From positions 744,001 through 808,000 of the forward strand of contig QPGO01000003.1 of NCBI GenBank assembly GCA_008632985.1: a DNA stretch of 64,000 nucleotides, read 5' to 3'. Position numbers and translations under genes: made by a program. Of this stretch, positions 10,400 to 55,640 are shown one piece after another (the first letter of the stretch is position 1; every line of letters starts with the position of its first letter). The notes below the pieces were generated by a model. That model was not told the DNA's origin and searched no databases. It saw only the letters and a list, made by a program, of their open reading frames with translations. This DNA comes from Psammoneis japonica. Lineage: Eukaryota.

Positions 10400-13074
10400 A
10401 CCCACGGTTCCATGCTGCTGCAATGGCAAGGTGGAGGGGGGAATGGCGTCTGCAAATCTGCATTGGAGAATGATGGAGATGAGTTTTTTTTAGCACAGCC
10501 TGTTTTGAGCAAGATGGGCATCACTTTGGCCTCCTCACACGTCACTTTGTGGCCTCCTCACATCCCTCCAACAAAAGATCAATCAAATTGGTGAGATGCC
10601 CTTTTGTCTGGTTGTTTCAAAAAAGGGATGAACCATGTGTTTCTCCACCCAAAAGACCAACACAAGAACCGTGGCTGGCAGAATCATCACAGCAAACCAA
10701 TGGCGAGTGAAAATTTGTGTGCCCAGCAGCCCAGGGATGCTTGCCAGATGTGAGAGTCTTGCTGTGAGCATGCCAAAGTTCTTTTTGCCCTGGTGTGGCA
10801 CCCAGCAGGTGACATCATTAAAAATGCAGTGTGCCCCATTTGTTGGAAGCACCCCATGTTGCAAAACTCAGAAGTCAACACCAACTTCATGTTTCTCTCA
10901 TCTTTTGCTGGAGGGGTGGACACCACTTGCTTGACATCATGGTGGCAAACATTGTCACATTCTTTTTGCTCATTGTTGCAGCTGCAGAAAATTTGGTGGC
11001 AAGAGCTCAAGATGTTTTGCAAGCTCCCACCAAAAGCCCAATTTTGGACTGTTGGAGTTCTTTGAGACACAGTGCAGCCACCAACTTCAGGAACATGATG
11101 GGCAGCTCTTTGAATCCATTGCAGGGGGGGGGCACTTGTGGCCATGGATCTGGTGTTGATGTGCTTTTCATGTCCTGGTTCAATTTTGACAGCACATGGG
11201 TGTGTGCAGTGTCAATGTTCCCCCCCCTGCAGAGAGCAAATGGCAGCATGTTCATTGCACACAATCAACAGGCTTCAAGCTGCATGGCAACTCATGATTT
11301 TTGGCATTTCATGGTCTGCCAGCATGGTCAGGGATCATGTGAGGCTTTGGTCAAAAATCTTGCAAAAATCAAAAAAAAATTGGAATTTGCACCCACAACT
11401 TGCGGGTCAACATCTTGCGGATGACCTTGCTGGCACAGCCCACAGTGGTCCCAGAAATGTGGGCAAGGACACAGCTGAGTGTGGAAGCACAAAAGATTTA
11501 AACAAGCAGGTGCACAACACCATTGCTGAGTTGGGACAACAGGCAGCAGATGGTCACACAGAAACCACAAGGAACATTGGTGAGCATGCCGGAAGAATGT
11601 TCAAACCAGATGCAGCAAGCAGGTGCTCTGGCATCTCTGAGTCAGGAGAGCTTGCCAAAAGAGCCAGAGCATCCATCAGGAGATGCCGCCTTGGGGAGAA
11701 GGACAATGCAATCTTGTGCAAGCAATGTGACCCCCACGCAAAACAGAGCGGGATCTGCAAGATGCAGAAGGCAAAAAGGCATTTGACGCAATTGCAGTCA
11801 CACAGGACAACATGCAAAGGCCATTCAACACAAGAATCAAGGAGTGATGGAGTTCACAAGAGTTGTGAAGGAGTGGGAAGTGGTGACGTGGCTGTTGGAA
11901 ATTGTCAAGTTGACATCTTGTTCAATGCAAGTGAGAAGATGTGCCTGCATGTCCAGGCAGCCAAGGCTTGGAAGCAGTTTGCATGACTCATTGTTTGTTG
12001 AGATGAAGGAGAGGTGCTTCAAGACCATCATTGAGGTGGTGGAGCACCCTGTGGCAGGATCACCCCAAAAGAAATCTCACCAACAAGAAAGAAGATGGGT
12101 CACCAGCTGGGATGCTGATGACACCCAGAACAGAGAAAGAAACAAGTTGTCAGTGGCGGTGCCAATGGAAGACACCTGGGAACATTGGCACTTCTTGAAA
12201 GACCTGCACTGGCAGTTTGCACTTGGGGGGGCAATTGTCCCTGTTTTTTTTTTTGGCTGAGGAGGTGCCCCAGATGTTGAACAAATGATGCGGGGCCAAC
12301 AAGAAGCCTGGGGGCACAAATTTTGTGCTGAACGAGAAGAAGCAAGTCAAATGCTGGAAATGTGGTGAGGTTGGGCATGTGAAAAAGCGTCTTCCTGACA
12401 ACAGTTGCTTGTTGGCAGAGTTGGATGATGCGGGCTGCAGGAATTGGCGGAGCAGTCGAGGCAGTGTTGGGTGGCATGGTTTTCAAATTTCTCATCCTCC
12501 TGTGCTGCTGCTTGATGTGTGTGAGGCCAATCAGTTGGCAGCTCATGCAGGGTCAGAGAGCATTGGGGATGTGTTTGCAATTTGCAAGCCTTGTGGGGAG
12601 TTCAGAGTTGGTGAGACCAAATGCATGCTGGCCGGCAAGCCGCAAAATTCCAACAGTCATCAGCCCACAACAGCTTCCAACAAGGTTCAGATTGTTGTCC
12701 AATCTCTGGAGCCAACTGCTCAAGGCATTGCCCTGGCATTGATGTGTTCTTTGTGTCCTGCTTCAGTTTTGATGTGGAAGCATGGCATCAATTCTTCCTT
12801 GGACAGCTGTGTGGCTTTTGAAGAGCTGCTGCAGCCAGGCCCCGATGCCACAACAAACACTTTGTTGTCCACATTGTTTTCCCTCTCTTTTTGAAGTGCA
12901 GATTGTGTGGGGTGCAACACAGAGGCAAGTGATGATTGACAATGTTGTTTTCTGTGGTGTTGTGGAGTTGCTGGTTGTGGACAGAGCAAAACTGCGGCAC
13001 TCATTGTGAGCGCTGCTTGCCTTCCTGCGGCTAAACGCTGGGCAGTTTTGAGTCCTGAGCACTGTGCAATGCCC
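10400..13074. mobile_element. Degenerate TE relics, including a second copy of the gag-knuckle element (~11430-12660, + strand)
   Basis: KKQVKCWKCGEVGHVKK at ~12337-12390. Collinear similarity to ~500-1600 (e.g. RNKLSVA, KDLHWQFALG). CpG/TpA depletion. Confidence 0.6.
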
Positions 13075-13307
13075 GCATGCACCACATGAGCCAGGCCACT
13101 GAAGGGACATTACAGCTGAATAACTCGACTAAAACATTTTTTTGCGCGCTCGTCCGCCGTCCCACAATCCTCGTGCTTTTTGCACGAGAAAAAATGACAT
13201 CCACCATGGCAAGAAAATCGTTAGCATTGAAAATCGAGCAGGAATCTCATCTGGAGAGTCTTTTCACACCACATTGGGAGCATGTGGTACGGACATTTTT
13301 TTTCACA

Positions 13308-16300
13308 TGATGCCTTCTCATGCATTTTCGCTGCTGTTGCCTCCATCCAACAGAGTCCAGCAAACGTTTCAAAGGTCTCTCCGACCGAAGTGCATGCCAG
13401 AGCATGTACATTCATTGACCAATTTAATGAAAATGGTGGCATGGATGGAGTTGCCCCCGGGTGTTCCTGCTGGGTGGTCAAACACAATGGCAGAAGCAGC
13501 GCAACATTCCCGATGCTTTGCTTTTCGCCAAGGCATTGCGTGTCAACCAAGAGTCGCTCATCAATGCATGTGGCCATTGTCATGGAAAGAAGACACCAGA
13601 ACTTCACGATCAGCTTCAAACCTGTCCATTTTATGGTGCCACTGTTGTCACAATTGTTTCAGAAACGACAGAGAAAGGGAAACCATTCACTTGCCTCCGA
13701 GATGAGCAAGTGATTCGAGACGACAGGGATGCTCGAGCTAGAGCAAGAAGCCTGATCACAAACGCTAAAGCAGATGCTGTAGATTGTTCTAATGAGACCA
13801 CATCCTCCTCCCCTCCTTCTGCTCACTTCCGTGAAAGTGCCCTTGCTTCTGCAGCGTGAGTGTCTCCAGAGACGGTGGGATCAAGCCAAGAACCCAGCCA
13901 AGTGCCTCCGCCCACCCAAGCCACTCTTCAGAAGATGATTCAGAAGCATCTCAAGAGAGTAAATCTGGAAGAGCTACCCGATTTGATGTGTGACCCATTG
14001 TCAGAAAACTGTTCTCTTCGTGAATCTTCAAGTCGACGCCAAAGAAGAAAAAGCAATCGCAAGATGCCGCGAAGTCTTCGACATCTGCATCGCATCTGAA
14101 CGACATTGTCAATGCCACTGCATCAGAAATTGCTCATCCAGTTGAGCCAGATCTCAACGCACTTGCAGAAGAGGCAACCAAGCTGTTTCATGACTCGGTG
14201 TTGAAGGATTCATCACACAATCCCAGCACAGAACTTCAAACCCTTGCATTTTGGTTCTAAAGCAGTGCACCACAGATGACGGAACAATCATCTTGAAGTG
14301 CATGAAGAATGGCAGAGGATTCTCTGCAAAGTGCTCAAAGCTTCAACAGAGCAAGAAAATTCCTGAAGACATTAAAGATCCGAAGAAGCGAATGACAAAA
14401 TGAAAAGCGTCCGCCATTGAAAAGCAATTGGACGAGCACTCGGAGCAAAGCCTGGCCGTGCTCGAGCAAGTTGCAAAGAAGCGAAAACTCATCCTTGTCG
14501 AACAAGAGAAAATTGCATTTGCTGCTCCAGAGATTGTTGCATTGTGGCAATGTGTCAATCCGCACATGAGCGACAATGCGCTCCACCACTTGAACATGTT
14601 TCTCACGCATTCTCGACCCAATTGCCTCTCGTGCGTCTTCCCCCCAAATGCTCGAACTCTGGTGAATGAACACATCAAGAACGAGGACATTCCACGAAGG
14701 ACAACGAAAATGCCATTGTTCACTGACAGGAGCAAATCGAAAAAGAAATCATGCGTGATGTGGTTTCCGGTTGACTTGTGCTTGGTGCTTGAGAAGCTGA
14801 CAGCCAAGGCGATAGAAGCTGGAGAGTTCGAAGACTCTGAATCTTTCTCCGCATTAAAAGCCGTGGTTGCACCGGTCTTTGGCATGGACAAAGGAGGGGA
14901 TCTAACTTCATCATTGATCCGAGTCGCCAACCGCAAGGATGGCAATGCAGCCCGTCACTGTGGAGCACTTGCCGTGGTGGAAGAAGCCAGTGAATGCTGG
15001 GAAAATCTCCGTCTGAGCCCATTCCGAAAGGATCTTCCCTTGCGTTCTTACTTGCAGCTGCTGCTCGACAACAAGGTGACCGTGCCATTGATGGAAGTTG
15101 CAGGCAAGGACGGCAAGGTGGCGACGTGCATTCCTGTGCTTGCACAGCTGCAAGACAAGAGCACAAAGAAATCGGTGTTGTCCAACGATGTCGTCCTTGA
15201 GCGATCTCAAGATGTTGCACCTCACATGCCGGAATGACAACCCCGAGAGAAGCCCGCTACATTGTCTGTGGAAGGGAGCGATGCTGCGTCACCAGAAATT
15301 GCTTCCAATCCTGTGAGAAAGCTGGCAGCGAAGCTGGTCCTTGCCAATGCAAACAACAAGCAAACGAATGCCCCCGACAATGCAATCGTGTGCACAGGCT
15401 TCGAAGCACACGACGAATCTCACTCAATTTCCTGCAAGCTCATGTCTGCATGCTTCCCAACCCCTAAATTGCTCGTCGTTCCGGACGGTGCGAGTGTCAG
15501 AATCTCAAGCCGAGGAATGTTTGCTCTTCAATCTCATGATGGAAAGCAGCAAAATGTTTTGAACGGCATGGGAACCGCTCAGGTGCTTTGCTCGTGTCCT
15601 GCGTGCACCATGCAAGCTGCGGATTTTTCAAAGCATCTTCCTCGTTGGATGGAAGTTCACGAGAAGCCCACGGAGAAAGGGAAATGGAAGCACTGTGATG
15701 CTCCTCTTAGATCTGGCGAGAACTCCCCAACAGCCAACTTCGAGGAACACACAAAAAATCGCAACGGGGGCAATTTCAAGCGCACGGCTGCACAAGACCG
15801 ATCAGACAAACTCAATTCAGCCAGCCAAATGAAAGAAGCCTTTCTCGTTCAAGATCCGAATGAGGACCTCAGCTCTCCCATGCATTTTACAATGAACACG
15901 TTTTCATGCCATCTCTGCCCACTCATTAGAGACCGGTTTGCCGACATCGAGAAGAAAGCACCTCAGGGGGATTGCGTGCGCGACGTGAAAGATGTGCTGA
16001 GTGCACCAAGAAGACGCCCTCCAAGAGCTGCCAAGATCTTCTGAAAGCCAACCGGGATTGTGACAAAGATGTCAAGTCAATGGAGGTGGTGCTGGCTGCA
16101 GAAAAGGCCAAGAAGACTCCCTCTGAATCCACGGTGCAAAGGAACGAAGTGAATCTTGAGCATTTGAAGGGCGAGAAAAAGAAGCACTCGGAAGAAACAG
16201 AATTTGGAGCATTGACGAAGCTCATGTGCGGAGCATCAACTGTCCTTGATGCTGTCAATGCATGTGAAAAGTCTGACAACAAGGCAAAAGGACCTGCATG

Positions 16301-17166
16301 CTACGTTTTCACGAGGTCAATTGAAGTGTGCGGCAACGCAAGCTGTCATCCCATGTTCGGAGGATGCAAACATCTCGAGTGCGGCAAGCATCAAAGTCCT
16401 GTCCGTGTGGGGCAAGATCTGCAAAGCAACATGCAATGCACACAATGAGGATCAGAATCCAGAGGTCCGTGCTGCCATTGTTGAGTTGATGGACAAGACA
16501 AAAAAGGTGATGACACCGCTGCTTGCCAAGGCAAAGCCAATGAAAACTCAGCAGAAGCTCGGGGATGTTGACTTGCTGAAAATGGCGGAAGCAACCGCAG
16601 CGCACTCCAAAGCATGGAGAGAAGAATTCCCAGACAAAAACAAGAGCACCGGACCAGCATGTCAAGGCATGCATCGCGATGAATGTCATGGAGCTCCGGC
16701 TGGCAAACGGCTCAAAATGCAAGGGCGAGGTGACGAGGAAGGCTTCGAAAACTGCCACCCGCATCTGAACAATGCATGCAATGCAACAAGTGCAATGGTT
16801 GACACTCCACAAAGAGTCAATTGCCATGCTCGTCGAATCACAGAGAACCACTTGCCTGAGGTCCAAGCTGTCATCCAAAAGATTGAATCGAAGAGGCGGA
16901 AGGTCGTGCGGAAAGCCACCAAGAAAAGAACCGCCCGACTTCAACAGAAAGGGCCGGAAAGGGTTGGTGCATTGCTGGGTGCTGACCCATCAGGAGAGCA
17001 CATCAATGTTTTGGAGGATGAAGTCATCAAAAAGGCTTGGGCACCAGTCCATTTCCTCGCGGTGGAAAACAAGGCACCTGAAGACTGGCAGCAAGTTTTT
17101 CTCGAGGATGAAGAAATCGGGGATGAAACAAAGGCTGAGATTGAGTTTTGTGGCAGTGCAGCGTAA
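13308..17166 (+). pseudogene. Disrupted RAG1-core/Transib-like DDE transposase (start approximate)
   Basis: Spread over ORFs 14428, 15262, 15972 and 16246. Motifs: GMDKGG (14881-14898), HDGKQQNVLNGMGTAQVLCSCPAC (15535-15606), SPMH (~15874), MHRDECH (~16669-16689), DEEGFE (16732-16749). Confidence 0.8.
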
Positions 17167-17249
17167 ACTAAAGAGCCCATTGTTGCGGCACCGTCACTCA
17201 CCTTTCCTTTTGCAACGCAACGAAATGAGAAATGTGGAGCACAGAAGTT

Positions 17250-17370
17250 GCACCGACAGAGACAAAGTCGACGGCAACGTCGTTGAGGATGAGAACAACA
17301 CCGTTGAAGACGACAACAAAGTTGTTGACGATGAGAATGATGCCGTTGGCGACGAAAATGCCGTTGGTCC
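17250..17370 (+). repeat. Imperfect ~21-bp tandem repeat (gttgaNgaYgaNaaYNNNNNN) in the 3' subterminal region of the transposon
   Basis: 4-5 consecutive units visible: gttgaggatgagaac, gttgaagacgacaac, gttgacgatgagaat, gttggcgacgaaaat. Confidence 0.6.
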
Positions 17371-17752
17371 ATTGAAGCGAAATCAAAAAAGATGTGGCCG
17401 TTGGATTTGTGGTTGATGGGTCATGAGCTACTTCTACGCAATTTGTATGGTACAGTTTTTACGAGCCCATGTTTTGTTCCAGGTCTACGGCTCTAGCAGT
17501 GACCCCTGACTCACGTAGTGGCATGTCGACGCGCGAACAGCCAGAATGAATCGAAAAATTTGGAGTTCGCGCAAGTTCGCGCATCACCGCACCCACGACT
17601 TCGCCATCACGCGGATACGCTTTCCTCTTTCCTCTCTCCTCTCTCTTGAAGCTGGAGTACAGTGCATCCAACACCAAAACCCAAAACACGACAGCGGGGC
17701 GAATCCCTGTTACAACGTTTGCGACAACAACACCTCTTTCTTTTTGCGCATC

Positions 17753-21806: not shown

Positions 21807-23449
21807 GCACAACACATACAGCTAACGCATTCGCCGAGAGAGCAATAGAATACGCAACGCCTCCGTTTGAGGCGAGTCGGATTCCCCGTGCGAGCATCAC
21901 CATCATCATATAGTAACACAATAAGCACCAATCTACTATATTTATGCTGGTCCCCTGTTATTGCATTCACACATACACACAAAACTTAAAACCACACACT
22001 ACTTCTTCCGAAAGCTCAAACGTCTCAACGGGATGGAACCGCAGTTGCATTCATACCACAAAAATCGTCTGAGGTAGCAGCCGCCACCATTATGACTGGT
22101 GCTGGCTCCTCTTTACGTTCAAACAAATTCTTGACAAAATTGTCAAAGACCAACAAATTTGCGTACTGCTTGTAGTTCATTGGTGGAAAGTTGGCGGCAG
22201 GCGTTTCTTGTAGATAGGTCTGTTTGATATACCCCATGATCCGATTGGGTTGCCTGTTGCTGGATCGACAACGTGGTCATCATTGACCAGAGGCTTGTTT
22301 TGGAGACGAGCGTCATTGCGAATCTTGGAGACCAGCTCTGGATCATCCCCAAAAAGGACCGCCAAGCATGGTGAGGCCATGTCATCTCTTTATGCTTTGC
22401 TTGATAGTTCTTGTGTGCTTTGGCTCGCCACGACCAAAATCTCTTGATCAAATAGTCACCTAAACCTCCCATGATCATTCTCGGGGATCCCCAAAATCCT
22501 CAATTCGATTAGCTTGCGTCTGGAATTCGAGTGACTGGCGACGGGCGATTGATTCGATTGGACGATGCCGTCGTGTGGAATTGTCATAATGATGAAACCC
22601 ATTGTGGACAAGCGGCATTGTTTGATCGTGAATTGCTAGAGGATGCAGGGACAGTGTGAGCACAACACATACAGCTAACGCATTCGCCGAGAGCAATAGG
22701 ATGACGCAACGCCTCCGTTTGAGGCGAGTCGGATTCCCCGTGCGAGCATCATCATCATCATCATATAGTAACACAATAAGCACCAATCTACTATATTTAT
22801 GCTGGTCCCCTGTTATTGCATTCACACATACACACAAAACTTAAAACCACACACTACTTCCGAAAGCTCAAACGTCTCAACGGGATGGAACCGCAGTTGC
22901 ATTCATACCACAAAAATCGTCTGAGGTAGCAGCCGCCACCATTATGACTGGTGCTGGCTCCTCTTTTCGTTCAAACAAATTCTTGACAAAATTGTCAAAG
23001 ACCAACAAGTTTGCGTACTGCTTGTAGTTCATTGGCGGAAAGTTGGCGGCAGGCGTTTCTTGTAGATAGGTCTGTTTGATATACCCCATGATCCGATTGG
23101 GTTGCCTGTTTGATAATACCCCATGATCCGATTGGGTTGCCTGTTGCTGGATCGACAAAACATGGTCATCATTGACCAGAGGCTTGTTTTGAAGACGAGC
23201 TTCCTTGCGAAACTTGGAGACCAGCTCTGGATCATCCCCAAAGGATGTACCGGTTGGGATGCCCGACGGAACGGGTCCTCAGTTTTGAGTAAAGTCCACC
23301 AAGTATGGTGAGGCCATGTCGTCCTTATGCTTTGCTTGATAGTTCTTGTGTGCCTTGGCTCGCCACGACCAAAATCTCTTGATCAAATCGTCACCTAAAC
23401 CTCCCATGATCATTCTCGGGGATCTCCAATCCTCAATTCGATTAGCTTG
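21666..23449. repeat. Tandem duplication (~21666-22515 and ~22516-23449) of the convergent 3' ends of the MEKHLA and Rieske genes
   Basis: Both units start gcgtctggaattcgagt and end cgattagcttg. The ORF tail ...DDFCGMNATAVPSR occurs twice (22025 and 22877). Confidence 0.9.
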
Positions 23450-25615
23450 TCCTTGCATAACAACCGAATCTTCAAGTGAAATATGGTAATTCCAATTGTT
23501 CACCAAGAGAGTCAGCATGGGCAACATGCCGGGAATGCCGGTAATGGTGGAGAGGATTGGTCCACGAGGCAAGTGCTGTCGTAGCAACACGCGAGTTCGC
23601 TGGGGCGCCACTGGGATAATGTGGAATTCTTCTTCAAAGCCACTCACACCGCCGTGGCGAACAATGTTGGGTGGGTCAAAACGAAGAATCTTTTTGGGTC
23701 TACCACCCGCTCCAAGCTTTCCGAGGTGTCCCATTCCACAGTCGTCCACAAAGGCTGTAAGCTTGAGCTTTGGTAAATTCGAGTTGAGCATGCCAATGCT
23801 CTCAATCGGCGGGACACTGCCGTCGTGAAGGTAAAACAAGTGTGGGCTGTCCAAGTTGTTTTCCACAATGTAAGAATAGTCCACGGCATAATCCATAACC
23901 GTGTCGATTGGCACTGTTTCCATATCACCCTTGCGGCGAGAAGGAAGCAAGGACGGATCCGCCTCCAATACATTTCCACGCCACACGTACACCAATCCTT
24001 CGTGCTCCACGGCAGCTCGGTGGTTTCCGCAATTGGCGTCTGTCACTTTGTTTAGAAAGCGCGAATCATCTCCGCCAGAAACGACAGAGCCAGTGGTTTC
24101 ATCCACGGTCTTGAGCGTTGGTACATGCACACAGTCTCCTTTTGGTCCAAAGCGCCAACCATGGTACATGCAAACAAGTTCGCCCTTTTCGACTTGGCCC
24201 ATGGACAGAGGTACCGATCGATGAGGACAAACGTCCGCCATGGCCACGAGCTCACCATTGTTGTCGCGATAAACGACCAAGGGTTCGCCCCAGAGGCGTG
24301 TCGCAAATGGCTTTCTTTTCTTGTTTGTTTTACGCGAGAGGACGGCATCCGAGGGTGATTCATATCCGTCAATTTGCCACGGATAAGCGACCGCATACCA
24401 AACGTTTTCAAACGATGGTTTTCTTAATAGATCTGGATTATTGGACTGTGTCGGTGTGTAGGAAAAGACCAAGCCTCCAACGCGGTCATTAATGTGCTTG
24501 GCAATCTCCCCCTTGGCAGTCGCTGCCTTGCCGTCTCTGCTCTCGTCGTTATCTTGAGTATTTTTCTTCCGCGAAGCTGCCAAACAGAAATGAACCGCTC
24601 CACCCCAGCGACTACGATGCTCCAACAGCTCCATGTTGGCAATCGAGTCGAAAAAGATGCGTGCTTCGTTCGAAAAGGGAACGTCCACAAAGGGCTTGAG
24701 CGAATCCGTCATGCACAAGAGCGTCTCTGTACCACTTGCGGCAAAGGTAAAGAGTTCGTCCATAATGTTTCGGACCGCATCCTCATTGACGTAAAACAAG
24801 ACGGCTTCCCAAACAAACAACGTAGGAATGCCTTGTTTCAGTCCACCCTTTTCCCTCAGGGTCTCAATCAAACTTGCGGGATTCTCGCCACCGCAGTCGT
24901 TTAAATCTAGTGGCACCAACCGGGGCCCCTTATTTGTTAAGTCCCAATCCGGATCATGATTTTTCTGAAAGTTCTCGTACAGAGTTTGCTTTCCTGCAGT
25001 GACTTGAGGAAGATCCACTTCGACAAAGTTAATCTTTTCGTCGTGCTCATGTCGATAACGTATCGCACGCGTGTCATAACCGGCTCCAAACAAGACGACA
25101 TTGCACTCGAGTGCTTGTCCCGTGGTTGCATCGGTGCAGGCCGGACTCGTTAAAAAGTGCTCGAGTGCGCCTTCAATAAATTCGGTACGAGCCTGGATCC
25201 ATTCAGTAAACTTTACAACAGGATCAAAGAGATTACTGCCGGCATTGGTCGTGACGAGACCACGAGTGGTGGGGGGCAAAAAGGTGGCAGCCACATCATC
25301 CTGAATCAAGCCGCGTTGGTTCAGCAAAGCACGGACCCACAAGACGCGAAGATTCTTCGAACTGTCCTTTATTGGATCGTCGTCAAAGGCGTGAAGCACA
25401 TCAAAAGCGGCGCCTGTGACGGCATCGCTGACGACACCAAACACATTTTGAGAGGCTGCCTGGCTCTTGTTGTTGCTTTCGGTGGAGGAGATGGGCAGTG
25501 CTGTTTTCTTCAAGACGGTTTTTCGGTTGTTGGGTGTGACAAAGGCATTCGCCCTGATGAGGGCAGTCGCCACAAGAAGGAGAAGAGAGTGCTTCATCAT
25601 GGGTCGCATTGCCAC
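22877..25615 (-). CDS. Probably plastid-targeted LCM-type SAM methyltransferase + Rieske non-heme iron oxygenase fusion; clean ORF 25615-23279, C-terminus probably continues via indels to 22877
   Basis: Signal peptide + ANAFVTP. MTase motifs: VVLFGAGYDTR, FVEVDLP, LFVWEAVLFY. Rieske motif: CPHR...CMYHGW. Mononuclear Fe motif: ENNLDSPHLFYLH. Confidence 0.88.
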
Positions 25616-28282: not shown

Positions 28283-29749
28283 ATGGGAACGACGACCTCA
28301 TCGCAAGAATCGCGAAAACATCCATGCTCATTGAGCATACGGCGACAGTCCAAGGCAATTCTGGGTCTTTGCATTGTGTTTGTTCTCGTCGGCGACTTTG
28401 GCATAGTGGAGTACGTTCGACTTTCGGATTCAACGACGCAATCAATTCACCACGAAAAGAAGAATGGAATGGAGCAAACAAAACAAGCAAACTCAAATCT
28501 TACTTCAAGACCACGGAAAATGCAATACACTGCTCTCGCTTCAAACGCAACAAATCGCACAGATGTAAAGGAAAATGTGGCGGCGAAACCAAGACAAGAA
28601 GCAATCTCAACATTTCCTACGAAACCAAGGATATTATTTCTAAATCCTGCTCTTGCGTCACAAGCACGAAAACCTACAGTCCAATTGGTTTATCCGATTG
28701 GTATGAATGCGAGCATTCCAAAACCGCCGGTCCGCGTCAAGAAAGAAGATCGTCCGTTTTACGAAGAATGCGAACCTATTGGTGATTGGCAAACGCGGTT
28801 TCATCCAACGTGCAATGCCATGCATGAAATTGACATTGCTGCTTTTAATGGTGACAACGCAAAAGCGCATGTTCTTTCGCGTCGTGGTACTTGGAGATTG
28901 GTTTGGAAAGTTCGTCTGGGCACCAAGTGGTTCGTATTGAAAACGTTGCATTTCGAACGCGAGTTCGATGCAAAGACATTCCCACATGCCATTGTGGATG
29001 CGATTGCAATGGAAAGACTCACTTCGTCACCCTTCCATGTCAATTCCTATGGCTTTTGTGGACAATCCATAGTTTCAGAGTATGCTCCAAATGAAGCAAC
29101 GGTTCTTATCAAGAATTCTCATTTCAGTGTTCACCGCCATGGTATTTTCTTCGCACGTCAGTTGGCACTCGGGATGCATCATATGCATTACATGGGCAAT
29201 GAAGGCTTACCATCATTTAGTCACAATGACATCAAAAGTGCCAACATGGTGTGGACATCGAATGGCCTAATCAAGTACAATGATTTCAATCTTGGTTTGC
29301 TACTTCGGCGAAATACAACTTCCAAGGAACCATGTGGATTCGCTCCCCACTTTATCAATCCAAAATGGCATGCCCCTGAAATAATCAAACATGATAGCTA
29401 CGTTTCGGAAAAGGCTGACATCTTTGCTCTGGGCAATATCTTTTTTCTCATCTTGACCAAGCACGACGCGTGGAAGCTAGAACTGGGTCGAAATCCGCGT
29501 ACGGAAACAAAACGGGAAAAGAAACTGGACGGTGTCCTGCCCTACCTGCCGGAAAAATATGCCAACACAAGTGTGTTTGAAGAGCGGGCAATAATTACTG
29601 CGTACAAAGCGTGCTTTCAGCATGATCCAAAGAACAGACCATCAGCACTCAGCTTGAGTCAAGCGTTTGCAAAAGTGATAGAATGGAGGAAAAAGGGAAA
29701 GAAAGGTACAGAACAGGAGCTACGGAAGCTCTTTCATCTAGTTGAATAG
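28283..29749 (+). CDS. N-terminally membrane-anchored protein kinase-like protein (paralog 1)
   Basis: 488-aa ORF. TM segment ILGLCIVFVLVG; motifs VLKTL, HNDIKSAN, NDFN, APE, DIFALG, and RP in subdomain XI. Confidence 0.88.
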   Translation: MGTTTSSQESRKHPCSLSIRRQSKAILGLCIVFVLVGDFGIVEYVRLSDSTTQSIHHEKKNGMEQTKQANSNLTSRPRKMQYTALASNATNRTDVKENVAAKPRQEAISTFPTKPRILFLNPALASQARKPTVQLVYPIGMNASIPKPPVRVKKEDRPFYEECEPIGDWQTRFHPTCNAMHEIDIAAFNGDNAKAHVLSRRGTWRLVWKVRLGTKWFVLKTLHFEREFDAKTFPHAIVDAIAMERLTSSPFHVNSYGFCGQSIVSEYAPNEATVLIKNSHFSVHRHGIFFARQLALGMHHMHYMGNEGLPSFSHNDIKSANMVWTSNGLIKYNDFNLGLLLRRNTTSKEPCGFAPHFINPKWHAPEIIKHDSYVSEKADIFALGNIFFLILTKHDAWKLELGRNPRTETKREKKLDGVLPYLPEKYANTSVFEERAIITAYKACFQHDPKNRPSALSLSQAFAKVIEWRKKGKKGTEQELRKLFHLVE

Positions 29750-38361: not shown

Positions 38362-41300
38362 AAGCTTCTCCTGCCACTTTACGTCTACGGGCTATCCAGC
38401 GATTCAAGTCGAAGAAGAAGGCAAGATGTATTACCGTGACGCAGATCAATGCCTTTGAGGCTGACGTAGCAAAGTGCATGGATCGACTAAAGACCGTCAA
38501 CTCTTCAGCAGAAGCTTGATTGCTTGCTTTGAAGATCATCCATAGTTTACAGGATATACTTTGTTAGAAGAAGTTTGTATCAAACTGTTTCTCATGAATG
38601 CGGTTGAGACCCGTTCCAAACACTCCTTTTTCAAAATCGAAGCACGTCAAAATCAAAGTTTTCCTGGTCAGAAGCACCCGGAAAACTTCGATTTTGGATT
38701 TTTCAACTTCGAAAAGCACGCTGAAAGACGTGGCACCTGCACCTGTTTAGGGTTTGGAGTGAACAGAAGGGACCTGCAGCCTCTCTACTGTAGAGCACAG
38801 CGTGGAGAAGCGTGAAGTTGTTCTGTTGCACCATGCCAAGTTTCTCCATCTTGGGGTCCCAAAGAAAGTCTAACAGGTGGGGCCCTGTGGGAAGACCAGC
38901 GCACTGTGTCTTGCCTGGAACACTCCTCTGTGCAATTCTTTGAAATGGCATGCGAAAGGATCATTTCATTCTGCCTGAGAAACACCAAAAACTGTGTGTG
39001 ACAATGGCACCACGGCACTTGCCAAGGTGCTTTCTTGCATCGAAATGGTTGAATTTCAGTTCCATGCCACCATCATCACCACTGCTGGGGTTTTCTTGGA
39101 ACAAACCTTGGAAAACACTGGCCAGTGTGGATGGACTAGCGTGCTTCTCTCCCTCATGTGTGTGGTCATCCACAAGTGAAAGCACCCTAAAGGTGACTTT
39201 CGTGAGGTTGTTCATTCTTGGTTCTAGCATGTGTGGCAGTTGTTGATCCAGCGATGGCCAAAGGCTGCTGCTCTCACACGCAAACTTGAGCTGATCCATT
39301 TACAGGCATGCAGGCATCATTGGCACCAGCAAGATGTTTTTGCAATCTTCTCTTACAACATGCTGAATTTCCTTGAAGGCAACATTCTGGTTTCTGAGAG
39401 ACATGGTCTTCCACTGGAAAACATTGAACAGTCTCACAATCTTGGCAGCATGCAATCCCTTTGCATCCAGAGTGTCATCAGTGATGGGCCACCATCACGC
39501 TGTTTCCCTTCCATCCAGCAGTGGCATGGATCTGGCACTTGCACCCACAGCAAGCTGCCAAGATTTGCCGTGGGCTTTGCTGCCTTTCTGGGAAACTCCT
39601 GCTCCCCCAAAAAAGACAGTTTGACAAGCAAGACAATCGCATCAGGGAATCCTTAATTTTTGGGGCCCTGTGGAGATGTCCTTCTGTTTGCAATGCCCAA
39701 CAAACATGAAGCAGTGGTGTGCACTCTTGAATGAACTGGCAAGACATTCCAGACAAACATCCCAAGGTCAGTGAGCAATGCCTCCCCACTGATCTGTGGG
39801 AAGAAGCTTCTCACAGGAAGACTTTGCTCTTCCAGTCCACTGAACTCAAGATGGGAGCAAAGTGCACCTGTCCTCTGACCATTTTGATCAAACAGCTGAA
39901 TGGAACAACCACAGGTTGGCTCATCAAAGCACTTTCTGAAAGCCCATTTAGAGAGCACTGTTTGGCAACATGTCACCACCAACAGTGCAAGCATGCACCT
40001 GAGCTTGGGAAATTGTTGAACAAAAACAGCAAAGACACACAATTCAAGGAGCTTCAGGAAAAGACACACAGATTGAAATGTTCATCAGACAATGATTTTC
40101 CAACACAGCAATTTGCAAGACTGCACCAATGGGCATGTCCTGAAACCAAAAAATTCTCATTTTTGAGAGGAGAGTGCTCGAGCACTTTTTGCCAGTCTTC
40201 ACCCTGACAATTGGAGCAGTTTTGCTCCTCTTTTACCTGAAGTGTCTTGGGCAATTTTGTGGACAAGAAGGCAATGCTGTGGAGGACTGCACCACCGTTT
40301 TAAATGCCCGTTGTGTCAATGGAAATGCTGCACTGCACTGAAAAAGTGATTTCTTCTCACAAAACAGAGCATTGCCATCAGACATGTCATGAACTTGGTG
40401 CAAATCATTGTGCAAAGCTTTGCACCACCACACCACCAAAACCAGCTGGTGCCTGGCATTGTCACACATGTCACATCTTCTTTGTGCTGAGTGCTTGTGT
40501 CACAACTTTGATGGCAATTTGGATGGACACAGGACCCTGCTGCATGATGTGACAACAGTGCTGCAACAACAGACTTTGTTTGTGCTGCCACACTGGCTGG
40601 GGCCTTCCAGGTGGCAGGTGGTGGGCTCCACAGTGCTGCAGCAGAGGCCATGTCTTCATTTGTTCCCCACACAAAAGAACAATGCAAGTGGAGTGCAGCA
40701 TCTGATCAAATTCATCGTGGGACCCCACAAATGCAGAGGGGGCCTCTTGCAGAGGTCTGCAGGAATTTTTGCATGTGGCGCTGAAACATGCAGGGTGGCA
40801 CAGTTTCTGTGACAAAAATTTGGAAAAATGCCTGGTTCGCGAGACAGCTCTGGTGCAAAACCTGTGCAATTAGCCCCCATGCATTCATGCAAAACTCTGT
40901 GCATTTCTGGGTTGCAGGTCCCTCTGCAGCCATTTGCAGGGACCCACAATGAAACTGCACCATGGAAGAAGCCTTCCTGCATGAAATTGATGCAGAAGCT
41001 CCATGTCTCCCAAATGTCACAAAGCCAATCAACATTGCACAGCTTGTCTTGCATTCCTTGCTTGAGCATCCAAGACAATTCACAATGCTTTGCTCCATGC
41101 TCACTGCCTGATCCAACTGCTGCCACAGGCACTGAATGCAGGAGGGTTGCATCACTGCCCATCAAAGAATCTATTTTGCCAGGTCACAAGCAGTGCTGAC
41201 CCCAGCCTTTTTGCTTCCAGCAGCATGTGACCACATCCTTTGTCAAATGTGTTCAGAAATTCTTTGGTTGTGTTTTTGCCTCTGCCATCTGCTGAAACTG

Positions 41301-44300
41301 GTGGATCATTGTCCACAAAGTTTTTTTTTGTAATTCAAGCATCTTGCTGAATCAGATTGGCTGATCATCATCACAAGGTCCCATCACCAATGGCAATCCA
41401 AGAATCCAATTGCATGGCTGCACATCTGTGCCAGCATTTGCACACCAGCACATGTTGCAGCAGACATTGTAAAGCAGTGCTTGGCTCAAAACACCTGAGC
41501 TTGGATCATGCAGGGGGTGTTTGCTCAGTTGTGCATGATGACATGATGTCCATCAACCAGGCTGAAGTGCTGATTCCACATCTCTCTCATCATGAAACTT
41601 GGCATCTTCTGTGCAGGAGAGGCATGCATCAGCTGTCTCTCTTGACACTCCAGCTCTTTTTGCAGATGGCGATCACTCAACTTTTGCAGAGCCCTGCAGT
41701 TTGCACCCCAATCTTTTTCAATGTCTTTCCAATGCAAGCAAGTCTGACCACATGATGTGCACTTGCACATGAGAATCAGCTCCTCCAAGTGTGTCTGCTT
41801 TTTGCTTCTGTCATTGTTGCAGCAAATTTGCAAGCTGCACTTGCATCTGAATTGGGTTGAGTTCATCACAGAAATTGGACTTGCGGAGCCAACCTTGTGT
41901 TGTTTCCTTGGGAAAGAGTGGAAGAGCCTGGTGATGGATTTCCTTCAATGCAGTCAATGCATGCACAGACAATGCATGCAATGATCTCCTTGGTGTTGAG
42001 GGTGAGGCTGCAGAGCAGGTGCTTTTGGCAAGTTCATGCCAGAAAGGCCCACCCACTTTTGATGTTGCAACTGCTGATGCTGTGTTTGGAGGCATCAGAG
42101 TGGCAGACATGAGTTGGCTTTTGGCAAGTCACAATGTCCAGATCAATGTCTTCTTGTGCTTCTTTGAGGAAGCTCACCCCCAAAGTTTGGTGTCATTGAG
42201 TTCAAAAGGCAGCATCTTGTGCCAGCATTTGTTCTCAGCACTGATCATTGATCTGCAAAGAGACGGCCAGAAAAATGTTGGGCACATGGAATGATGTGTC
42301 CCAAACAGCCCAGGCAACCCATCAGGCATTTGATCTGTTTGAAGCTTGTGCTGCCTTTCTTCATCAACTTGCACATTGTGCAGACCAGGCAAGCAACAAA
42401 CTTGCTTTCTGGCAGCATGATGCTTGTGCATCTGTCATCCAGTGGCCATCCAAGGATGATCTGGATTTCTTTGAGTCATCCTTCTGCATTGAGCTTCTTG
42501 AGGCATGTCAAATTGTCTCTTGTGAGGTCTTCTTGAGAGTGAACTGGTTTTCTGATGAGCGCAGGTGTTTCTCACAATGTGGTGGCTGCTTCTCCTCATG
42601 GCAAGTTCTTGTTGCTGATGTCTGGGAGATGAGGGCAACTGTGTGTTGTCAATGCAGACATCAACAAGATCCCAGACCCTTGTTGTTTTGGGGGATCTCT
42701 GCTTGCAGCAGCCCTTGTTCTTTTGATGAAGGGGCATCAAGCTTTGGGTCCTTGAATTTTTTTTGCTGGTGGAAGCTTGTCTTGGATGAGGTTGTGGAGT
42801 TCCAAGGGGTCTCAATCTTGGCATTGTAAGATGTCATTGGCAAGGTTGCATGCCATTGCCAACATGTTGCTCCACAGGTTTGGATTTGGTCTGCCACCAA
42901 AGGTGATTCACAGAGCCGGCAAGGCCAAGTTGTTCACTGTGAGGGCTGTTGTTTGAGCTGCAGCCTTGCTGTTCAGGTGACCTTGATGACATGTGAATTT
43001 GCAGTCAATCTTCTGGAGAAGAACAGAGGTCTGTGGGCATTGAATCCTGATGGAGATGATGCAATGGATTGGACAGTGCAGCATGTTTCTGCACATGCAT
43101 GGGGGGTCAGTTCAGCATGTGACTTGTGAGTTTGTGAATGTGCCAGAGCTGGGCTTGAGAGATTGGTCGTGGTCTCTTGGTTGGTCACTTTGAGCAGGGA
43201 TGCTGAAGTGTTGGGCAGGATGTGGATCTTGTTTTTTTGCAAGGGGAGTTCCCAGTCTTTTTTTTTGCACCTTGTTGTGCATTTTCACTCAAAGTGCTGA
43301 TGTGTTTCTTGCAGCTCACTTGTTGTTTCCTCATTGCAGGGCATCTTGGGTGTCTCACAGCCAAGCTTCTTCATTGACAGGCTCCAGTGGGTGTTTGGCA
43401 CCAGACAACAGGGTGCTGGTTGCTTTGCTCCACATGGGGTGGCAATGAAAGAAAGGGTGAAGATGACCCACTGGTCAAAATTTGGAACCACAGCCCAGTG
43501 CTGACATTTTTGGAGCCTGGACAGCTGATTCTAGGTCAAGGTTAAAGCAGTGTTCAAGGATTTGCCAGTTTGCCTCTGTGGCTTCAATTGTGGGCTTGAA
43601 AGAGTGGCTCATTTGGTTGGCAGTCAAGTTGGCTGTGACACAATGTCACAAATCAACTGGATGAATGCCTTGCTGCAAGACAGCTTGTTCAAGGCAGAGT
43701 TTGGGGAAGCTGTCAATGTCAGTTGGTGTGTGGTGCTTTCATGTGGAGGCAATGTTGCAGCAGGTTCCACTGGGCCAGTGTTGCAGCAGGTTTCACTGAG
43801 CCAGTGTGAAGTGGTGACTTTTTAGATTCAGGTGCCTCTGGCGGATCCACCAGGTTGACCTGAAGAGGTGGCTGTTTGGCAGGCTCTGCCAGGCCAGCCC
43901 CAAGAGGAGGCTTTTAGAACAATTGAAAACCTTTGGCTGTGCTGGACTGTCCTTGTCAGGAGGCTGAGCAGTTGGGTCTGCCATGTCATCTTGTGAGGGT
44001 GACTGTTTGGAATTGGGAAGTGCACTCTCATGGTGAAGAGTGTGTCCAGTTGTCTTGGGGAGCTGCAGTCTCACAGTGGCTGTCTTGCAAGTGTCTTGTT
44101 CCAGTTGCTCTGGTCAAGGGTTTCAAATGAGGGGGGATGCTTGCCAAGCATCTTGTTGAGCTTTTCACACTGCTCTGTCAAGTGGGTTTCTGTGATGTTT
44201 GAACCATCTTGGCATGTGCATGACTGTCTGGACAGAGTCGCACATGCCAATGCATGCTGGGGCACAATGCAAGCTGGGGTGTGATTTTTTAGCATGCACA

Positions 44301-47300: not shown

Positions 47301-50300
47301 CTTCAAGCAAAAGGCCGATCCAAGCAGCATGTTTGTCAGCAGCACAGCCACCACTGTGATGCTGCATTGGAGAAGTGTCACCATTGGAAGCACATCTGGT
47401 GGTGAAACAACTGTTGGGAACAACTCTGCTGCCTGCTGTGGTGGAAAGGGCAGCTCATTTTTGCACTTGTTGTTGTTGCTCTTTTCTTGGTTTTTTAAAA
47501 AGCTGGCAGCAATTTTGACAACTGGGGGCATGGTTGGCCATGTTTGGCATTGTGGGCAAACTTTCAAAGCACAGTGTCAGACCTGGCCTCAAGATGGCTT
47601 TGCCTGAAATGATGCACAACCCAAGTCAGTTTGGAACAAGCAAAACACTGGCTTGGTCAGCATGCCCCCATGCAGAAGATGTGCCATGACTCACAATCAA
47701 GCAACTCTGACTTGAAAGACATTCCAAGGCACCCGTGTTTAGACTCCAGGCATGGCAAAGAGGGAAAATGGAGTTGCCATTCATTTTTGGTTTGGGGCCC
47801 ATGCTCTCAAAAGTCTGTTGTGCGAATGTCAACAAGTTTGCTCTGCTTGCAACAGCGTCACACTCTGAGAACACATTTTGATTTTCTTTGTCCCCTCATG
47901 GTGCACAGAACCAAAATGCACAAAATCTCTGTGTGAAAACATCCAGTTGAGAAAAATGAAAAAGGTTGGGATTGGAAATTCGTGGAAATTGAAAATGAGT
48001 TGAAAATCAACCCGGGAGATCGGGCATTGTTGGTTGCTTGTGCAGAGGTGAGCCATGAAATTCAAAGCACAAATTCCATGACTTGCATGTGACAGTCGTG
48101 TGCAGCATGTGTCATGGTGCCAGCGACTGTTTGATTTTTAAAAGTGGTTGCTTTGTGGTGGTGCATGCATTGTGCCCTTCTGTCAATGATGTGTTGGCAA
48201 TGCATGCACCATGTGTTCCTGGTGACAATGCATGTGTCATGCATCCAAAGGCACTCATCCTGTCATGTGTCTGCAGTTGCAGTCTGCGTGTTTGTTTCGC
48301 ACATGGCAGTGTCTAAAATGAACTTGCTCATGATGCATCATCAAGGCACAGTTGTGGCATCAACCAGCTCTGCACATGTTGTCTGTGGTGAGTCCAGAGA
48401 TGGATCAACAGATCAACTTTTTAAATGTGTGGTGCAAGTCATGCACATGTCTGAGGAGCCTGTGACTCTCTGATCACAACGCATTGTCATCTCAGATTGG
48501 CTGTGCCAAGAGCCAAGTTCACCTGCTTTGGGTGCTGACAATGCATTTCCTGAGTGTGCCATTGAAATCCATGCCTTCAATGACAACTGATTGGAGTTGT
48601 TGCACCTCTTGGCAGGCCTCGTGATTGTGAAAGCACCGCAGGCCGCAGGGAATGACAAGTTTTGCCGGTGGCAGCCCCTTGGTTTCTCATGGGTTTCTGA
48701 GTCCTCTTCAAAATCATGCAAGTCCAGAGTGATGGCAGAGCACTTCACACTTCGACTGCTGGATGCACGACTGTCATGTTTGGGTTGGTTGGTTGTGCGC
48801 CACTTGGCAGCGGAGCAGCGGCAGTCCTCATGGTTGACATCGGTGTCTTTTGATGGTTGCAATCTCAAATTCCAGTGCTCATTTTGTGCGCAATTCCACG
48901 TGGCTGTTGAGAGGGACCCAGATGGTTGTTGTCAAAGGAAGAAAAAAAAGAGGACACTCACTCTCTCTCTTGAATTCTTGAACCCTTTTTGACATTTTCT
49001 CCTCAAACAGCAGGATGCAAGTGACAACAATCCTTGTGACACCACATCACCCATCATGAACCTTGCGACAATGCCGCCTCCGCTTCCCATTCATAAAGAG
49101 GGTGCAATTGTGCATTTGGTCTTTGGCGATGGGTGCATGGATGCAGCAGCTGCCTGGGAAATGCACGCCATTGCACTTTTTCCATTCACATTTGGCATCA
49201 AGACCAACCAGGTTTTTCTGACCACAACCAAGCAAGTTGGGATTGAGGAGGTGGATGGCTGGCAACAGACAATTGAGAAACGCTCCAACACGTCAACTCA
49301 TTCAAAGAACGATGTGGAACACCTGCCCTCCAAGCACCACGTGCACATTGCAGAGATTTGTTGAAACTGCACGACTGGCTTTGATCTCATGTCAAGCACA
49401 GTTCCAGGATGCATGCCCATTCAGATTGTGTCAGGACATGGATTCGGCATTGCGCGGGGTTTTGTCATGTGCACACGAACAAGTGATGGGCAAAAACAAA
49501 ATGTTCCTTTTGCTGACTTGCCTGGAATTCCCAGCGCTTTGTCAGTCTTTGGCATTTGTGGCTCTCAGTGCAGAGCTGCTGTTGTCTTTGGGCATTGTTC
49601 CAGTGACCCAAATGGAAAGTTTGCCAATCGCAAAAGCAAGGTCGCATCCAGCAAAGCACCACTTGCATGTGAAAATGCTGACAACACGCATGCTTTCTGT
49701 GTTGGGACTGTTGGTGATCATTTGAATCCTCCCGCCAATGAAACAGACCTCTCAAGCACTTTTGGAGATGCCGTCGTGTGCTGTGTGCTGGCCGCTGCAA
49801 AGACTTTTGTGGACAATTCCATGACTGGAGATTGTCTTGATGCCCTTTTTGAAGCCAAGTGCAACAAATTGATTGCAAGCTGCCTCAGTGCACCAGGGTT
49901 TCCTCGCCAACTCAAACCTGTTGCCAACCTTTGCCATTTGCAGAGTCTCGTGCAACAAGGTTTGTTGCAGTTGAACCTGGCTGCTTTCAATTGCTCTCTT
50001 TTTGCCTGCCAAGACGAATGGTTCTCATGCAGAGCTCAGAGAGAGCATTTCTTCCATGAGCACACACCTCCCCAAGAAACTGAACCAGCTTTTGATTGAA
50101 TTTGTTGTAACCTCGTTGGAGTTGTGGCACCACACACACCCAAACAAGGCTGAACATTTGGAGCTGTGTGGAGAAAAGATCTGGCCAAAGCTGTCAGGCT
50201 TGCTTGGACCCCAATTCAAGAGAATTTGTCTTGATTGGGATGATGATGCCAAGATCCTTTTGTGCTCCAATGACGGAATGGCAATTGGAGCATGGGCAAT

Positions 50301-51586
50301 GGCATGCCGTGATTAGCTGGTGTCACCAAGCATGTGCAAAACATGATTTTGAGCAGATCTTGGGATGACAATGAGAAACTCAGCTGCTGGACAGACAGCT
50401 GGTGCCACGGGGATGTCAAGGAACAGTGAGGGTGACAACGGGAGGAACGGCAAGGGCTGCAAAATGAGGAACAGCAAAGGTTCCAAGCAGAAGAACAGTG
50501 AGTGGACGCATGGACCAAGTCCAATTCTGAACCGCAAGAAAAAAGGATTGGAGGAGCACTGCCCGCCATGGGAAAGGAAAGAAACTGAATGCTGTTCATT
50601 GTGGATGATTTACAGTTGCACGCACCATTGAATTTTCATCTCCTGCTTTAGAGGCATGTTGCAATCTCAGGCATGTCGTGCATCCCTTGTCAACCAAGCC
50701 CCCAGAGAAATGATGGTCGCATCCAAACACACACCAGGCGATGCAATCCAAGGCAGCAAAACCAATGGTTGTGGCTTGTGTGAGCTTCCATTGCAAACAA
50801 CATGAGAGCCTTGATGACCTAAACTCAGAGAGTTGCTGCAACTTGTTTGTTTGTGCAGAGGGTCTGTTCTTGGCATTGTGAGACAAATTCAGTTGTTGTG
50901 CCAACCGTGGAGTGGCGAGTTTCAGCCTTGGGGTTGGCACTCATGTCAAACTGCTTGAGGGCCTAGAGCATGTCTCTGACTGCCTTTTTGTTTTTCTTGG
51001 GGAGCACTCCTTTCAAAATCTTTGGCATCTAGTTGGAGCAAACAAGACAGCGTGGGCAACAAGAATGCAGAGGAAACAATGCCTGCAGTGACTCATTTGT
51101 TTCCAGGAGACATTGTCAAAATGTGGGGTGTGTGCAATGAACAACTGGCCCCAGAATTTGGGCACAGTTCTTGAGTCTCACAATGCACTGGCAACAATGC
51201 CTTCCTTTTGTTCTGCAGCATCACAAGCCACCAGGATGCCAGGACTGGGTTGGGTGCTGCGTGTTTTTCCTGGCGGAGCTGGGGCCAACCCAAAATCAAA
51301 AAAACAATTGAGAGCAGTGGACATCTGACTCAGACAATGGAAAACTGTGTCCGCTGATGTCAGATTCTTGGTCTTTGCCAAAATTGTTGTGGGCTTGGTC
51401 ATGGCTTCCATGTTGACAGATGAGCTGAAAAGTCTCGCTGCCAGCTGATCTTTGCTCTTGTTTCCACTGGGCTCAATGATTGCACTTTCTCTGCCATTTG
51501 GATCTGATCTCTTTTCAAGGTTGTTCAGCAAGATCAAACTGCTCAATTTGAATTTGGCATCTGCATTGTCTGCACTCAGCTTTTGA

Positions 51587-55632: not shown

Positions 55633-55640
55633 CTGTCACC
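54984..55640 (+). pseudogene. CoDi-type (diatom Ty1/copia) gag N-terminus; second, frameshifted copy starts at 52813
   Basis: MVLTR..ILGTVLNQDDDSPLRSALSINGI..IDALTC..LTPEEFRNC resembles diatom copia gag starts, with Tyr replaced by Cys. Confidence 0.6.

Follow-up and report, generated by a model that had tools for sequence, protein, structure and literature searches.

Transib transposons, of which a 5-bp target-site duplication is a hallmark in the available part of their original account (PMC1131882), are placed together with RAG1 in the CMCT clade, which in the accessible portion of a recent treatment (Kojima 2025, PMC12730594) comprises EnSpm/CACTA, Mirage, Chapaev, Transib, Plavaka, ESTA, Lanisha and RAG1. 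C(2)C and H(3-4)H motifs located after the second catalytic D and before the E, termini of the form CA..TG and duplications 2-5 bp in length are given there as common to the whole clade, and that portion of the treatment names no diatom lineage. CMC elements are described with 2-4-bp duplications in the part available of a preprint (bioRxiv 10.64898/2026.08.26.747230), which also reports 3-bp and TA duplications within one Transib lineage; duplication length is therefore a soft character, since it varied inside a Transib lineage. The domain DUF1280 (PF06918) is stated, in the accessible text of another study (PMC3985635), to represent Chapaev transposases and to group with RAG1. For the pelagophyte Aureococcus an active RAG1L/RAG2L transposon, AanRAGL, whose ends are asymmetric and which makes 5-bp duplications, has already been published (PMC9435367), so a further member of this lineage is not the first for stramenopiles. 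The locus compared here with these systems lies in a 64,000-nucleotide stretch of Psammoneis japonica contig QPGO01000003.1 (positions 744,001 to 808,000, hereafter the window), in which a preliminary description made from the letters had proposed a RAG1/Transib-like transposon at 13075-17525. Its remark that such elements are known mainly from animals is outdated, given the Aureococcus RAG1L/RAG2L transposon and the Transib relatives reported in bacteria, fungi and plants (PMC9435367).

Window 13080-17520 is, with a probability of roughly 0.85, an inactivated single-gene cut-and-paste transposon from a large, diverse family of diatoms, with RAG1/Transib architecture and a place in the CMCT clade. 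The element (~4.4 kb) is bounded by CAC...GTG ends, and the pentamer GCATG was read directly on either side (13075-13079 and 17521-17525, both + strand, identical); the bases flanking the two GCATG copies are unlike each other, which sets the length of the duplication at exactly 5 bp. At 13080 the 5' end reads CACCACATGAGCCAGG and the 3' end at 17520, reverse-complemented, reads CACTACGTGAGTCAGG; on the top strand the 3' boundary reads ...CCTGACTCACGTAGTG and then GCATG, with the junction at 17520/17521. Direct reading and end comparison gave a 5' terminal inverted repeat CACCACATGAGCCA GGCCACTG (13080-13101, + strand) and a 3' terminal inverted repeat whose reverse complement is CACTACGTGAGTCAGGGGTCACTG (17497-17520, - strand). 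Ungapped, the two match at 13 of 16 positions, and each of the 3 that differ shows a transition; allowing one 2-nt gap extends the match to ~22/24 nt (22 nt against 24 nt). Direct reading thus bore out the CAC...GTG termini, the 16-bp imperfect inverted repeats and the GCATG duplication of the preliminary description. Treatment of GCATG as part of the inverted repeat was rejected, as it would need an indel and leaves the flanks unmatched. A possible, weakly supported subterminal repeat block, CTCGACTAAAACAT (13124-13137, + strand), matches a block near the 3' end at 11 of 14 positions; this 3' counterpart lies at a different distance from the terminus, and by a rough estimate the match alone is not significant.

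A single transposase gene fills the element, as had been described: the family hidden Markov model (HMM, see below) matched 14221-17151 (score 462, E 1e-141), and a poorly conserved N-terminal part lies upstream of this match. The N-terminal part (13195-14193, + strand) is made up of open reading frame (ORF) frames 0, 2 and 1 in succession (13431-13859, 13860-14099 and 14024-14260), with a TGA at 13857-13859, and the family HMM is weak there (13613-14401, E 0.032). The transposase core in frame 1 (14194-16041, + strand), assigned from homologs and conserved residues, comprises a pre-RNase H stretch and the putative RNase H fold. It is followed by a stretch in frame 0 between two compensating frameshifts (16059-16334, + strand; HMM positions 813-932, E 1.6e-15; tblastn with P0008 residues 1122-1214) and by the C-terminal part, again in frame 1 (16372-17166, + strand; ORFs and homolog alignment), which ends at the stop TAA 17164-17166. 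No RAG2-like second gene was found among the ORFs of the element, in line with the earlier account. The core carries two in-frame TGA stops (14401-14403 and 15235-15237), and the frame detour at ~15994-16368 amounts to two frameshifts. The gene is dead and the element non-autonomous though its ends are intact; intactness as first described held for the ends (CAC...GTG with GCATG on both sides) and failed for the gene (two TGA, two frameshifts).

Relatives were sought by searching the read-through core of the window copy (P0001) with HMMER against 1.84 billion cluster representatives. The search found 130 homologous representatives at E<=0.001; tightening the threshold to E<=1e-10 left 54, and to E<=1e-30 left 3. 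P0002 was the best (E 4.7e-50); tblastn with P0002 residues 232-1186 matched window 14251-17148 (E 2e-81). Proteins of intact members range from 1,190 to 1,536 aa, with only ~22-35% identity from one subfamily to another. Twenty representatives were looked up, and all 8 that carried an organism name were diatom proteins (7 Seminavis robusta, 1 Thalassiosira exigua) annotated as 'unknown protein' or 'hypothetical', the others coming from metagenome or run assemblies. In a tree that took in only the diatom family and its hits, the window copy grouped with P0002, P0165, P0003 and the L001-type proteins P0005/P0153 (local support 98). A word-indexed protein search with P0001 returned nothing at near length and, with alignment, only P0002 and one close relative. 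A scan of viral contigs for family loci returned none, and a single-protein scan of metagenome loci returned two (L001 and L002). No second copy was found within the window by self-BLAST, tblastx, tblastn with 67 family proteins or the family HMM, the same searches yielding one marginal extra match of 35 aa at 29444-29548. A domesticated host gene was rejected as an explanation, since the locus is disrupted, has multiple copies and carries inverted repeats at its boundaries.

Judged from these matches the host is a diatom, and the label 'diatom-like' of the preliminary description holds because a neighbouring host gene is 70% identical to its best named match, from Ditylum brightwellii, and because the organism-named family members, from Seminavis and Thalassiosira, are diatom. 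That host gene (23282-25615, - strand) encodes a fusion of leucine carboxyl methyltransferase and Rieske 2Fe-2S domains, which is kept across diatoms, bolidophytes and other ochrophytes. No description of Transib-, Chapaev-, EnSpm-, CACTA- or CMC-type elements in diatoms was found in the literature, where the species lists of RAG1L fragments in the supplements of PMC9435367 might include diatoms.

Sibling copies were seen in contigs of a public run (X1), in which 158 contigs aligned to the region, 72 of them <90% alike and 13 covering position 13159; their differences from the window were mostly transitions. The run holds the same insertion, with one contig across each junction. Both of the contigs that cover 14401 read C there (CGA, not TGA), two contigs have an extra A after 15994, and one lacks one base at 16368. 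Sibling contigs thus differ exactly at the lesions, from which it follows that the lesions arose in the window copy or its close kin after insertion. One contig of the same run joins 14945 to 17085 with 2,139 bp skipped, which would fit an internally deleted and non-autonomous sibling at another site of the genome.

An intact relative was found in two metagenome contigs, L001 (617-5152) and L002 (765-5300), as a 4,537-bp element that is 99.93% identical between the two and has unrelated flanks. The element in L001 has a single intact ORF (1,199 aa / 1,211 codons), its other ORFs on either strand being 90-246 codons long, and no RAG2-like second gene was found alongside the transposase ORF. Its ends are two-part, with a perfect 10-mer CACCACATTT and a 13-mer CGTGTTTYCTCTC separated by a spacer of 17 nt at one end and of 6 nt at the other. 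Near-identical intact copies in marine metagenomes suggest, at the level of sequence, current activity.

The window was also scanned for structures by chance equal to that of the element, defined as CAC..GTG ends with a 5-bp duplication and >=11/14 inverted-repeat matches. Three hits were found in the window, and at least one hit occurred in 80 of 200 first-order Markov-shuffled windows; the structural signature by itself is not beyond chance. A repeat finder did not place the terminal pair among the 25 longest of its 329 pairs, and it listed a weaker subterminal pair (I4, 13111-13137 with 17469-17495). A second end pair sought in the window with the terminal motif was not found (39 matches against 30 expected). 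The frequency of hits in shuffled windows favours an explanation in which GCATG is repeated and the ends are inverted by coincidence, the real boundaries lying elsewhere. So do the palindrome GCATGC formed by GCATG and the following C, by which the repeat is partly readable as an extension of the inverted repeat, and the want of a duplication at L001 and L002. We consider such a coincidence very improbable, and the boundaries trustworthy, because the only transposase-family match in the window lies between them, because the octamer CACCACAT begins both ends of a related element whose boundaries were fixed independently, and because contigs of diverged sibling copies in the public run pile up inside them. 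The octamer makes up the first 8 nt of the 5' repeat and both ends of the L001/L002 element, the limits of which were set where the 99.93% identity stops; in this P0160/P0153-type relative it is the same at both ends, and the protein is ~28% identical to P0002. The sibling pile-up begins <=~25 bp inside the 5' end. The extent of the inverted repeat (22/24 nt) and the fact that the mismatches in its first 16 nt are all transitions, as decay predicts, also speak against coincidence. At ends fixed in this way, GCATG would be repeated by chance in ~1 of 1,024 cases (arithmetic).

For comparison with RAG1, the family profile was built from an alignment of 38 long members, with residues numbered as in P0002. 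D441, G459, N460 and E476 are invariant in this alignment, and D654, K656, G663, C673, C676, R716 and H774 nearly so; conservation stands at 94% of filled alignment columns for D654 and E1050, and at 95-100% of columns for C673/C676. The window copy keeps every invariant and nearly invariant residue bar G663, at which MAFFT placed no P0001 residue and where by count a G stands at D+9. The E1050 column likewise has no window residue in the MAFFT alignment, and an E is present at the matching position 20 residues after H-x4-H; the SEEGFE..H block is retained. The motifs picked out in the preliminary description were all recovered in the window copy, at columns conserved in the family: GMDKGG (D codon 14887-14889), D-x18-C-x2-C (D 15538-15540, C 15595-15597 and 15604-15606) and H-x4-H (16672-16674 and 16687-16689) with its E 20 residues on (16747-16749).

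When the family profile was searched against all PDB sequences, the best match was zebrafish RAG1 (3jbw, E 5.1e-4), amphioxus RAG1L following at E 0.21; the other RAG1 entries and amphioxus RAG1L sit among coiled-coil noise. The HMMER alignment with zebrafish RAG1 runs through three colinear stretches in which the motifs are ungapped (D-K...G...C-x2-C, SV..P..H...G and H-x4-H...SEE..E), and this confirmed the RAG1 spacings given in the preliminary description. One member, P0062, passes the Pfam cut-off for RAG1 (26.6 against 25 bits) and weakly matches PDB RAG1 (E 0.011).

An AlphaFold2 model of P0002 was built from 102 aligned rows, with a mean predicted local distance difference test (pLDDT) of 75.3, a predicted template modelling score (pTM) of 0.72 and a core mostly >90. 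In a Foldseek search of this model against the PDB, all 44 matches at E<=0.001 were RAG1 or BbRAGL (best 3.8e-8). HzTransib came next, at E 1.8e-3 to 8e-2, ahead of any unrelated chain, the first of which stood at E 0.32. VIA-align superposed model residues 321-1097 on RAG1 460-1008 (Z 19.1, 465 residues, root-mean-square deviation 3.8 A, with ~12-13% identity over the structural alignment), and gave Z 17.5 for BbRAGL, 17.0 for HzTransib (418 residues), 7.8 for the P element transposase and 4.5 for Hermes. A language-model atlas pointed in the same direction and is taken as a lead only. RAG1 was thus the best match in both the profile and the structure search, and HzTransib was reached by fold, as the earlier proposal would predict. 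On this evidence the likeness to RAG1 is genuine, both in the predicted fold and in the putative catalytic and zinc motifs.

Several points weigh against the assignment as a whole. The 5-bp duplication is known from a single copy, and no pairing of the flanks at L001 and L002 revealed a duplication, whatever its length (0/2); these contigs may be chimeric short-read assemblies across a repeat, or the family may sometimes leave no duplication. The 5-bp duplication as a family trait is the main gap, because it was seen once and there is none at L001/L002. No empty site was found in run X1, the sole run with the locus, in which the insertion is present. The ORF pieces of the window copy gave no relevant match in Pfam (0/7) or in phmmer searches against the PDB (0/3), and because they match nothing relevant by themselves, the link to RAG1 rests on relatives and on the profile. 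The profile match to RAG1 is modest (E 5e-4), and HzTransib was not matched by the family profile at E<=10 among PDB sequences. The equivalence of D441 with RAG1 D600 would follow from position in the predicted fold only, GMDKGG being the putative D600 site. The PDB is not known to contain a CMC or Chapaev structure, and the fold match therefore cannot separate Transib from Chapaev.

The features tested for the CMCT clade were all found: a DDE triad on an RNase H-like fold (as modelled), C(2)C and H(3-4)H motifs, and CA..TG termini with a duplication in the range of 2-5 bp. Being shared clade-wide, the motifs and the CA..TG ends fail to single out Transib. DUF1280 was the sole Pfam family matched recurrently by the relatives (at E<=0.01 by 12 of 27 long members, at E<=1 by 14 of 38, and at E<=0.001 by 11 of 91 shorter members), and it covers the region of the first catalytic D. 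The Pfam cut-off of 25 bits was reached for DUF1280 by 8 of the 130 representatives and for RAG1 by 1 of 130 (P0062), a comparison that is uneven in that DUF1280 models the first-D region only and elsewhere RAG1 is the sole model or structure.

These counts argue for a Chapaev-type (CMC) transposon, whose RAG1 likeness would reflect shared clade ancestry and whose 5-bp duplication would be lineage variation or coincidence. We hold this possible but rather doubtful. In its favour, DUF1280 recurs, with nearly all 220 positions of its profile matched in P0107, P0147 and P0003; the domain is reported as that of Chapaev transposases and as clustering with RAG1 (PMC3985635, in the part available); and CMCT elements in general share the C(2)C and H(3-4)H motifs and the CA..TG ends (PMC12730594, in the part available). 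A duplication of 5 bp stands against the 2-4 bp of CMC elements (bioRxiv 10.64898/2026.08.26.747230, in the part available), and the DUF1280 likeness is limited to the first-D region, there being no Chapaev model beyond it with which the RAG1 match could be evenly compared. The language-model neighbours of P0002 residues 320-1100 include clusters bearing DUF1280 as well as clusters bearing RAG1_RNase_H, a lead only, and one that sits awkwardly with a purely Chapaev-type origin.

Genuine membership of the Transib superfamily, either within Transib/RAGL or as its sister and with the 5-bp duplication as a family trait, would account for the CAC ends with a 5-bp, fairly GC-rich duplication, for motif spacings that are the same as in RAG1 and for a modelled fold that matches RAG1, RAGL and HzTransib at Z 17-19. 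It would also accommodate the bipartite ends with unequal spacers of L001/L002, which resemble the asymmetric ends of RAGL and Subgroup I Transib elements (PMC9435367). Against it, the Pfam RAG1 cut-off is passed by 1/130 and that of DUF1280/Chapaev by 8/130, HzTransib is unmatched by sequence, and the family proteins measure 1,200-1,500 aa against ~700 aa for Transib (PMC1131882, in the available part). The Transib end consensus (38-bp ends with a heptamer CACAATG, a spacer and an A-rich nonamer) was not recovered beyond CAC: the heptamers CACCACA (5') and CACTACG (3') each agree at 4/7 positions with CACAATG, the invariant CAC being present, and no AAAAAAATC-like A-rich nonamer was found at a spacing of 12 or 23 nt from the heptamer. 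A second subterminal block is present, with a sequence unlike the Transib nonamer. The duplication length, moreover, comes from one copy and varies even inside Transib (bioRxiv 10.64898/2026.08.26.747230, in the part available). Membership in Transib proper appears unlikely to us. Of the original assignment, the RAG1/Transib-like fold and motifs stood, and its specificity for Transib was not supported, the features being clade-wide and DUF1280 outnumbering RAG1 (8/130 against 1/130).

Placement of the diatom transposon within CMCT was left mixed, because its first-D region is Chapaev-like, its region from the second D to the E is RAG1-like, and its duplication has the 5 bp of Transib/RAG. Our reading is of a diatom lineage of its own, close to where Chapaev and Transib part. 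A stronger formulation is advanced only tentatively, as we think it improbable as a whole: that diatoms host an undescribed, superfamily-level and still active RAG1-fold lineage near the split of Chapaev from Transib/RAG1, with 5-bp duplications and two-part ends of unequal spacers.

By homology with RAG1 and HzTransib, a dimer of the family transposase would bind the CAC ends and nick the DNA there, and the free 3'-OH would attack the opposite strand and thereby form hairpins on the flanking DNA. The excised element would then insert with a 5-bp stagger, producing a duplication such as GCATG. The window copy could not make the enzyme and would at most be mobile in trans.

The composition of the element and of other repeats in the window is marked by depletion of TA. 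The observed/expected ratio of TA in the element is 0.13 (0.02 over 16001-17000) with CG still at 0.74, and the intact relative L001 has a TA ratio of 0.61; this is not just CpG decay, because CG in the element is 0.74 while TA is 0.13. Positions 1-2000, 10500-17500 and 39000-61000 of the window have TA ratios of 0.00-0.25 per kb and an excess of TG/CA, and genic stretches have 0.4-0.7. Tyr accounts for 0.2% of residues in the protein of the window copy; in 61 tabulated relatives its share is 0.9-5.4%. At positions where relatives have Tyr, the window copy has Tyr in 3%, His in 13% and Cys in 8% of cases, and intact members keep Tyr in 19-42%. Stops counted in all six frames were TAA 24, TAG 23 and TGA 193, and it is because TAA and TAG are scarce that every frame seems open and that 60 ORFs of >=60 aa crowd the element region. 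These observations suggest a repeat-targeted TA-to-TG/CA (A-to-G at TpA) mutation process, of which no description in diatoms was found in a literature search. Since Tyr codons were apparently turned into His and Cys, Cys/His motifs are unsafe when read from the window copy alone; the positions of its CxxC and HxxxxH motifs, as first described, are upheld by their conservation in the family, and part of its general richness in Cys and His is a mutation artefact.

Other repeats were noted in the window. Just upstream of the element, 12300-12700 belongs to another high-copy repeat (summed depth 941 in run X1 against ~56-59 in single-copy flanks) with several joints and loose ends. The element itself lies on the margin of a repeat block that is depleted of CG and TA. 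A second candidate element at 39812-42158 (2,347 bp) has CAC...GTG ends, a terminal inverted repeat of 16/19 (CACAGGAAGACTTTGCTCT against CACAAGAAGACATTGATCT) and a 5-bp duplication CTTCT, and does not encode the transposase family. The third hit of the chance scan, 47646-50336 (11/14, CAAAA), is at chance level. Long overlapping ORFs (<=749 aa) at 54672-59587 have no Pfam match, are TA-poor and have 54-56% GC; they are probably artefacts of missing TAA/TAG or a decayed element of another kind.

With this family, >100 protein clusters, called 'unknown protein' or 'hypothetical' wherever their source names them, become readable as putative transposases related to the V(D)J recombinase. The family, itself so far unnamed, widens the known range of the RAG1 enzyme lineage and leaves the accepted picture unchanged. 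As a deep protist-hosted branch that is Chapaev-like in its front half and RAG1-like in its back half and has a Transib-like 5-bp duplication, it can help to root the relationship of CMC, Transib and RAG1, and an active element could become a genetic tool for diatoms. The spacers of 17 and 6 nt in L001/L002 differ by one helical turn, as do the 12- and 23-bp V(D)J signals. Were the tentative proposal of a superfamily-level active lineage true, RAG's use of asymmetric ends would predate the Transib/RAGL lineage and extend beyond it, and would be testable in a tractable alga.

Set beside the known systems, the diatom element resembles each in part. It is like Chapaev (CMC; DUF1280, PF06918) in the first-D region of its relatives, in CA..TG ends and in the C2/H2 motifs; it differs in its duplication (5 bp against 2-4 bp) and in that the window copy has no DUF1280 match, the two being compared over the first-D region only. 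With Transib (HzTransib, PDB 6pqn/6pqx; Kapitonov & Jurka 2005, PMC1131882, in the part available) it shares both CAC...GTG ends, a 5-bp duplication in the readable copy, a single transposase gene, a putative DDE centre with CxxC and HxxxxH, and a modelled fold at Z 17.0. It differs from Transib in a family protein of nearly double the length, which has ~320 additional N-terminal residues and ~396 residues separating the second D from the E, in the lack of a sequence match to HzTransib, in an end heptamer of 4/7 and in having no A-rich nonamer. From RAG-like elements (ProtoRAG/BbRAGL, 6b40) it differs in having no RAG2-like gene and, for the window copy, no Pfam RAG1 match. Mouse and zebrafish RAG1 and the RAG-like proteins are nevertheless the best fold match and the best PDB sequence match of the diatom family, with identical D-x18-C-x2-C and H-x4-H-x20-E spacing and, in the one readable copy, a shared 5-bp duplication, and the diatom relative in L001/L002 has, like RAGL, bipartite ends with unequal spacers.

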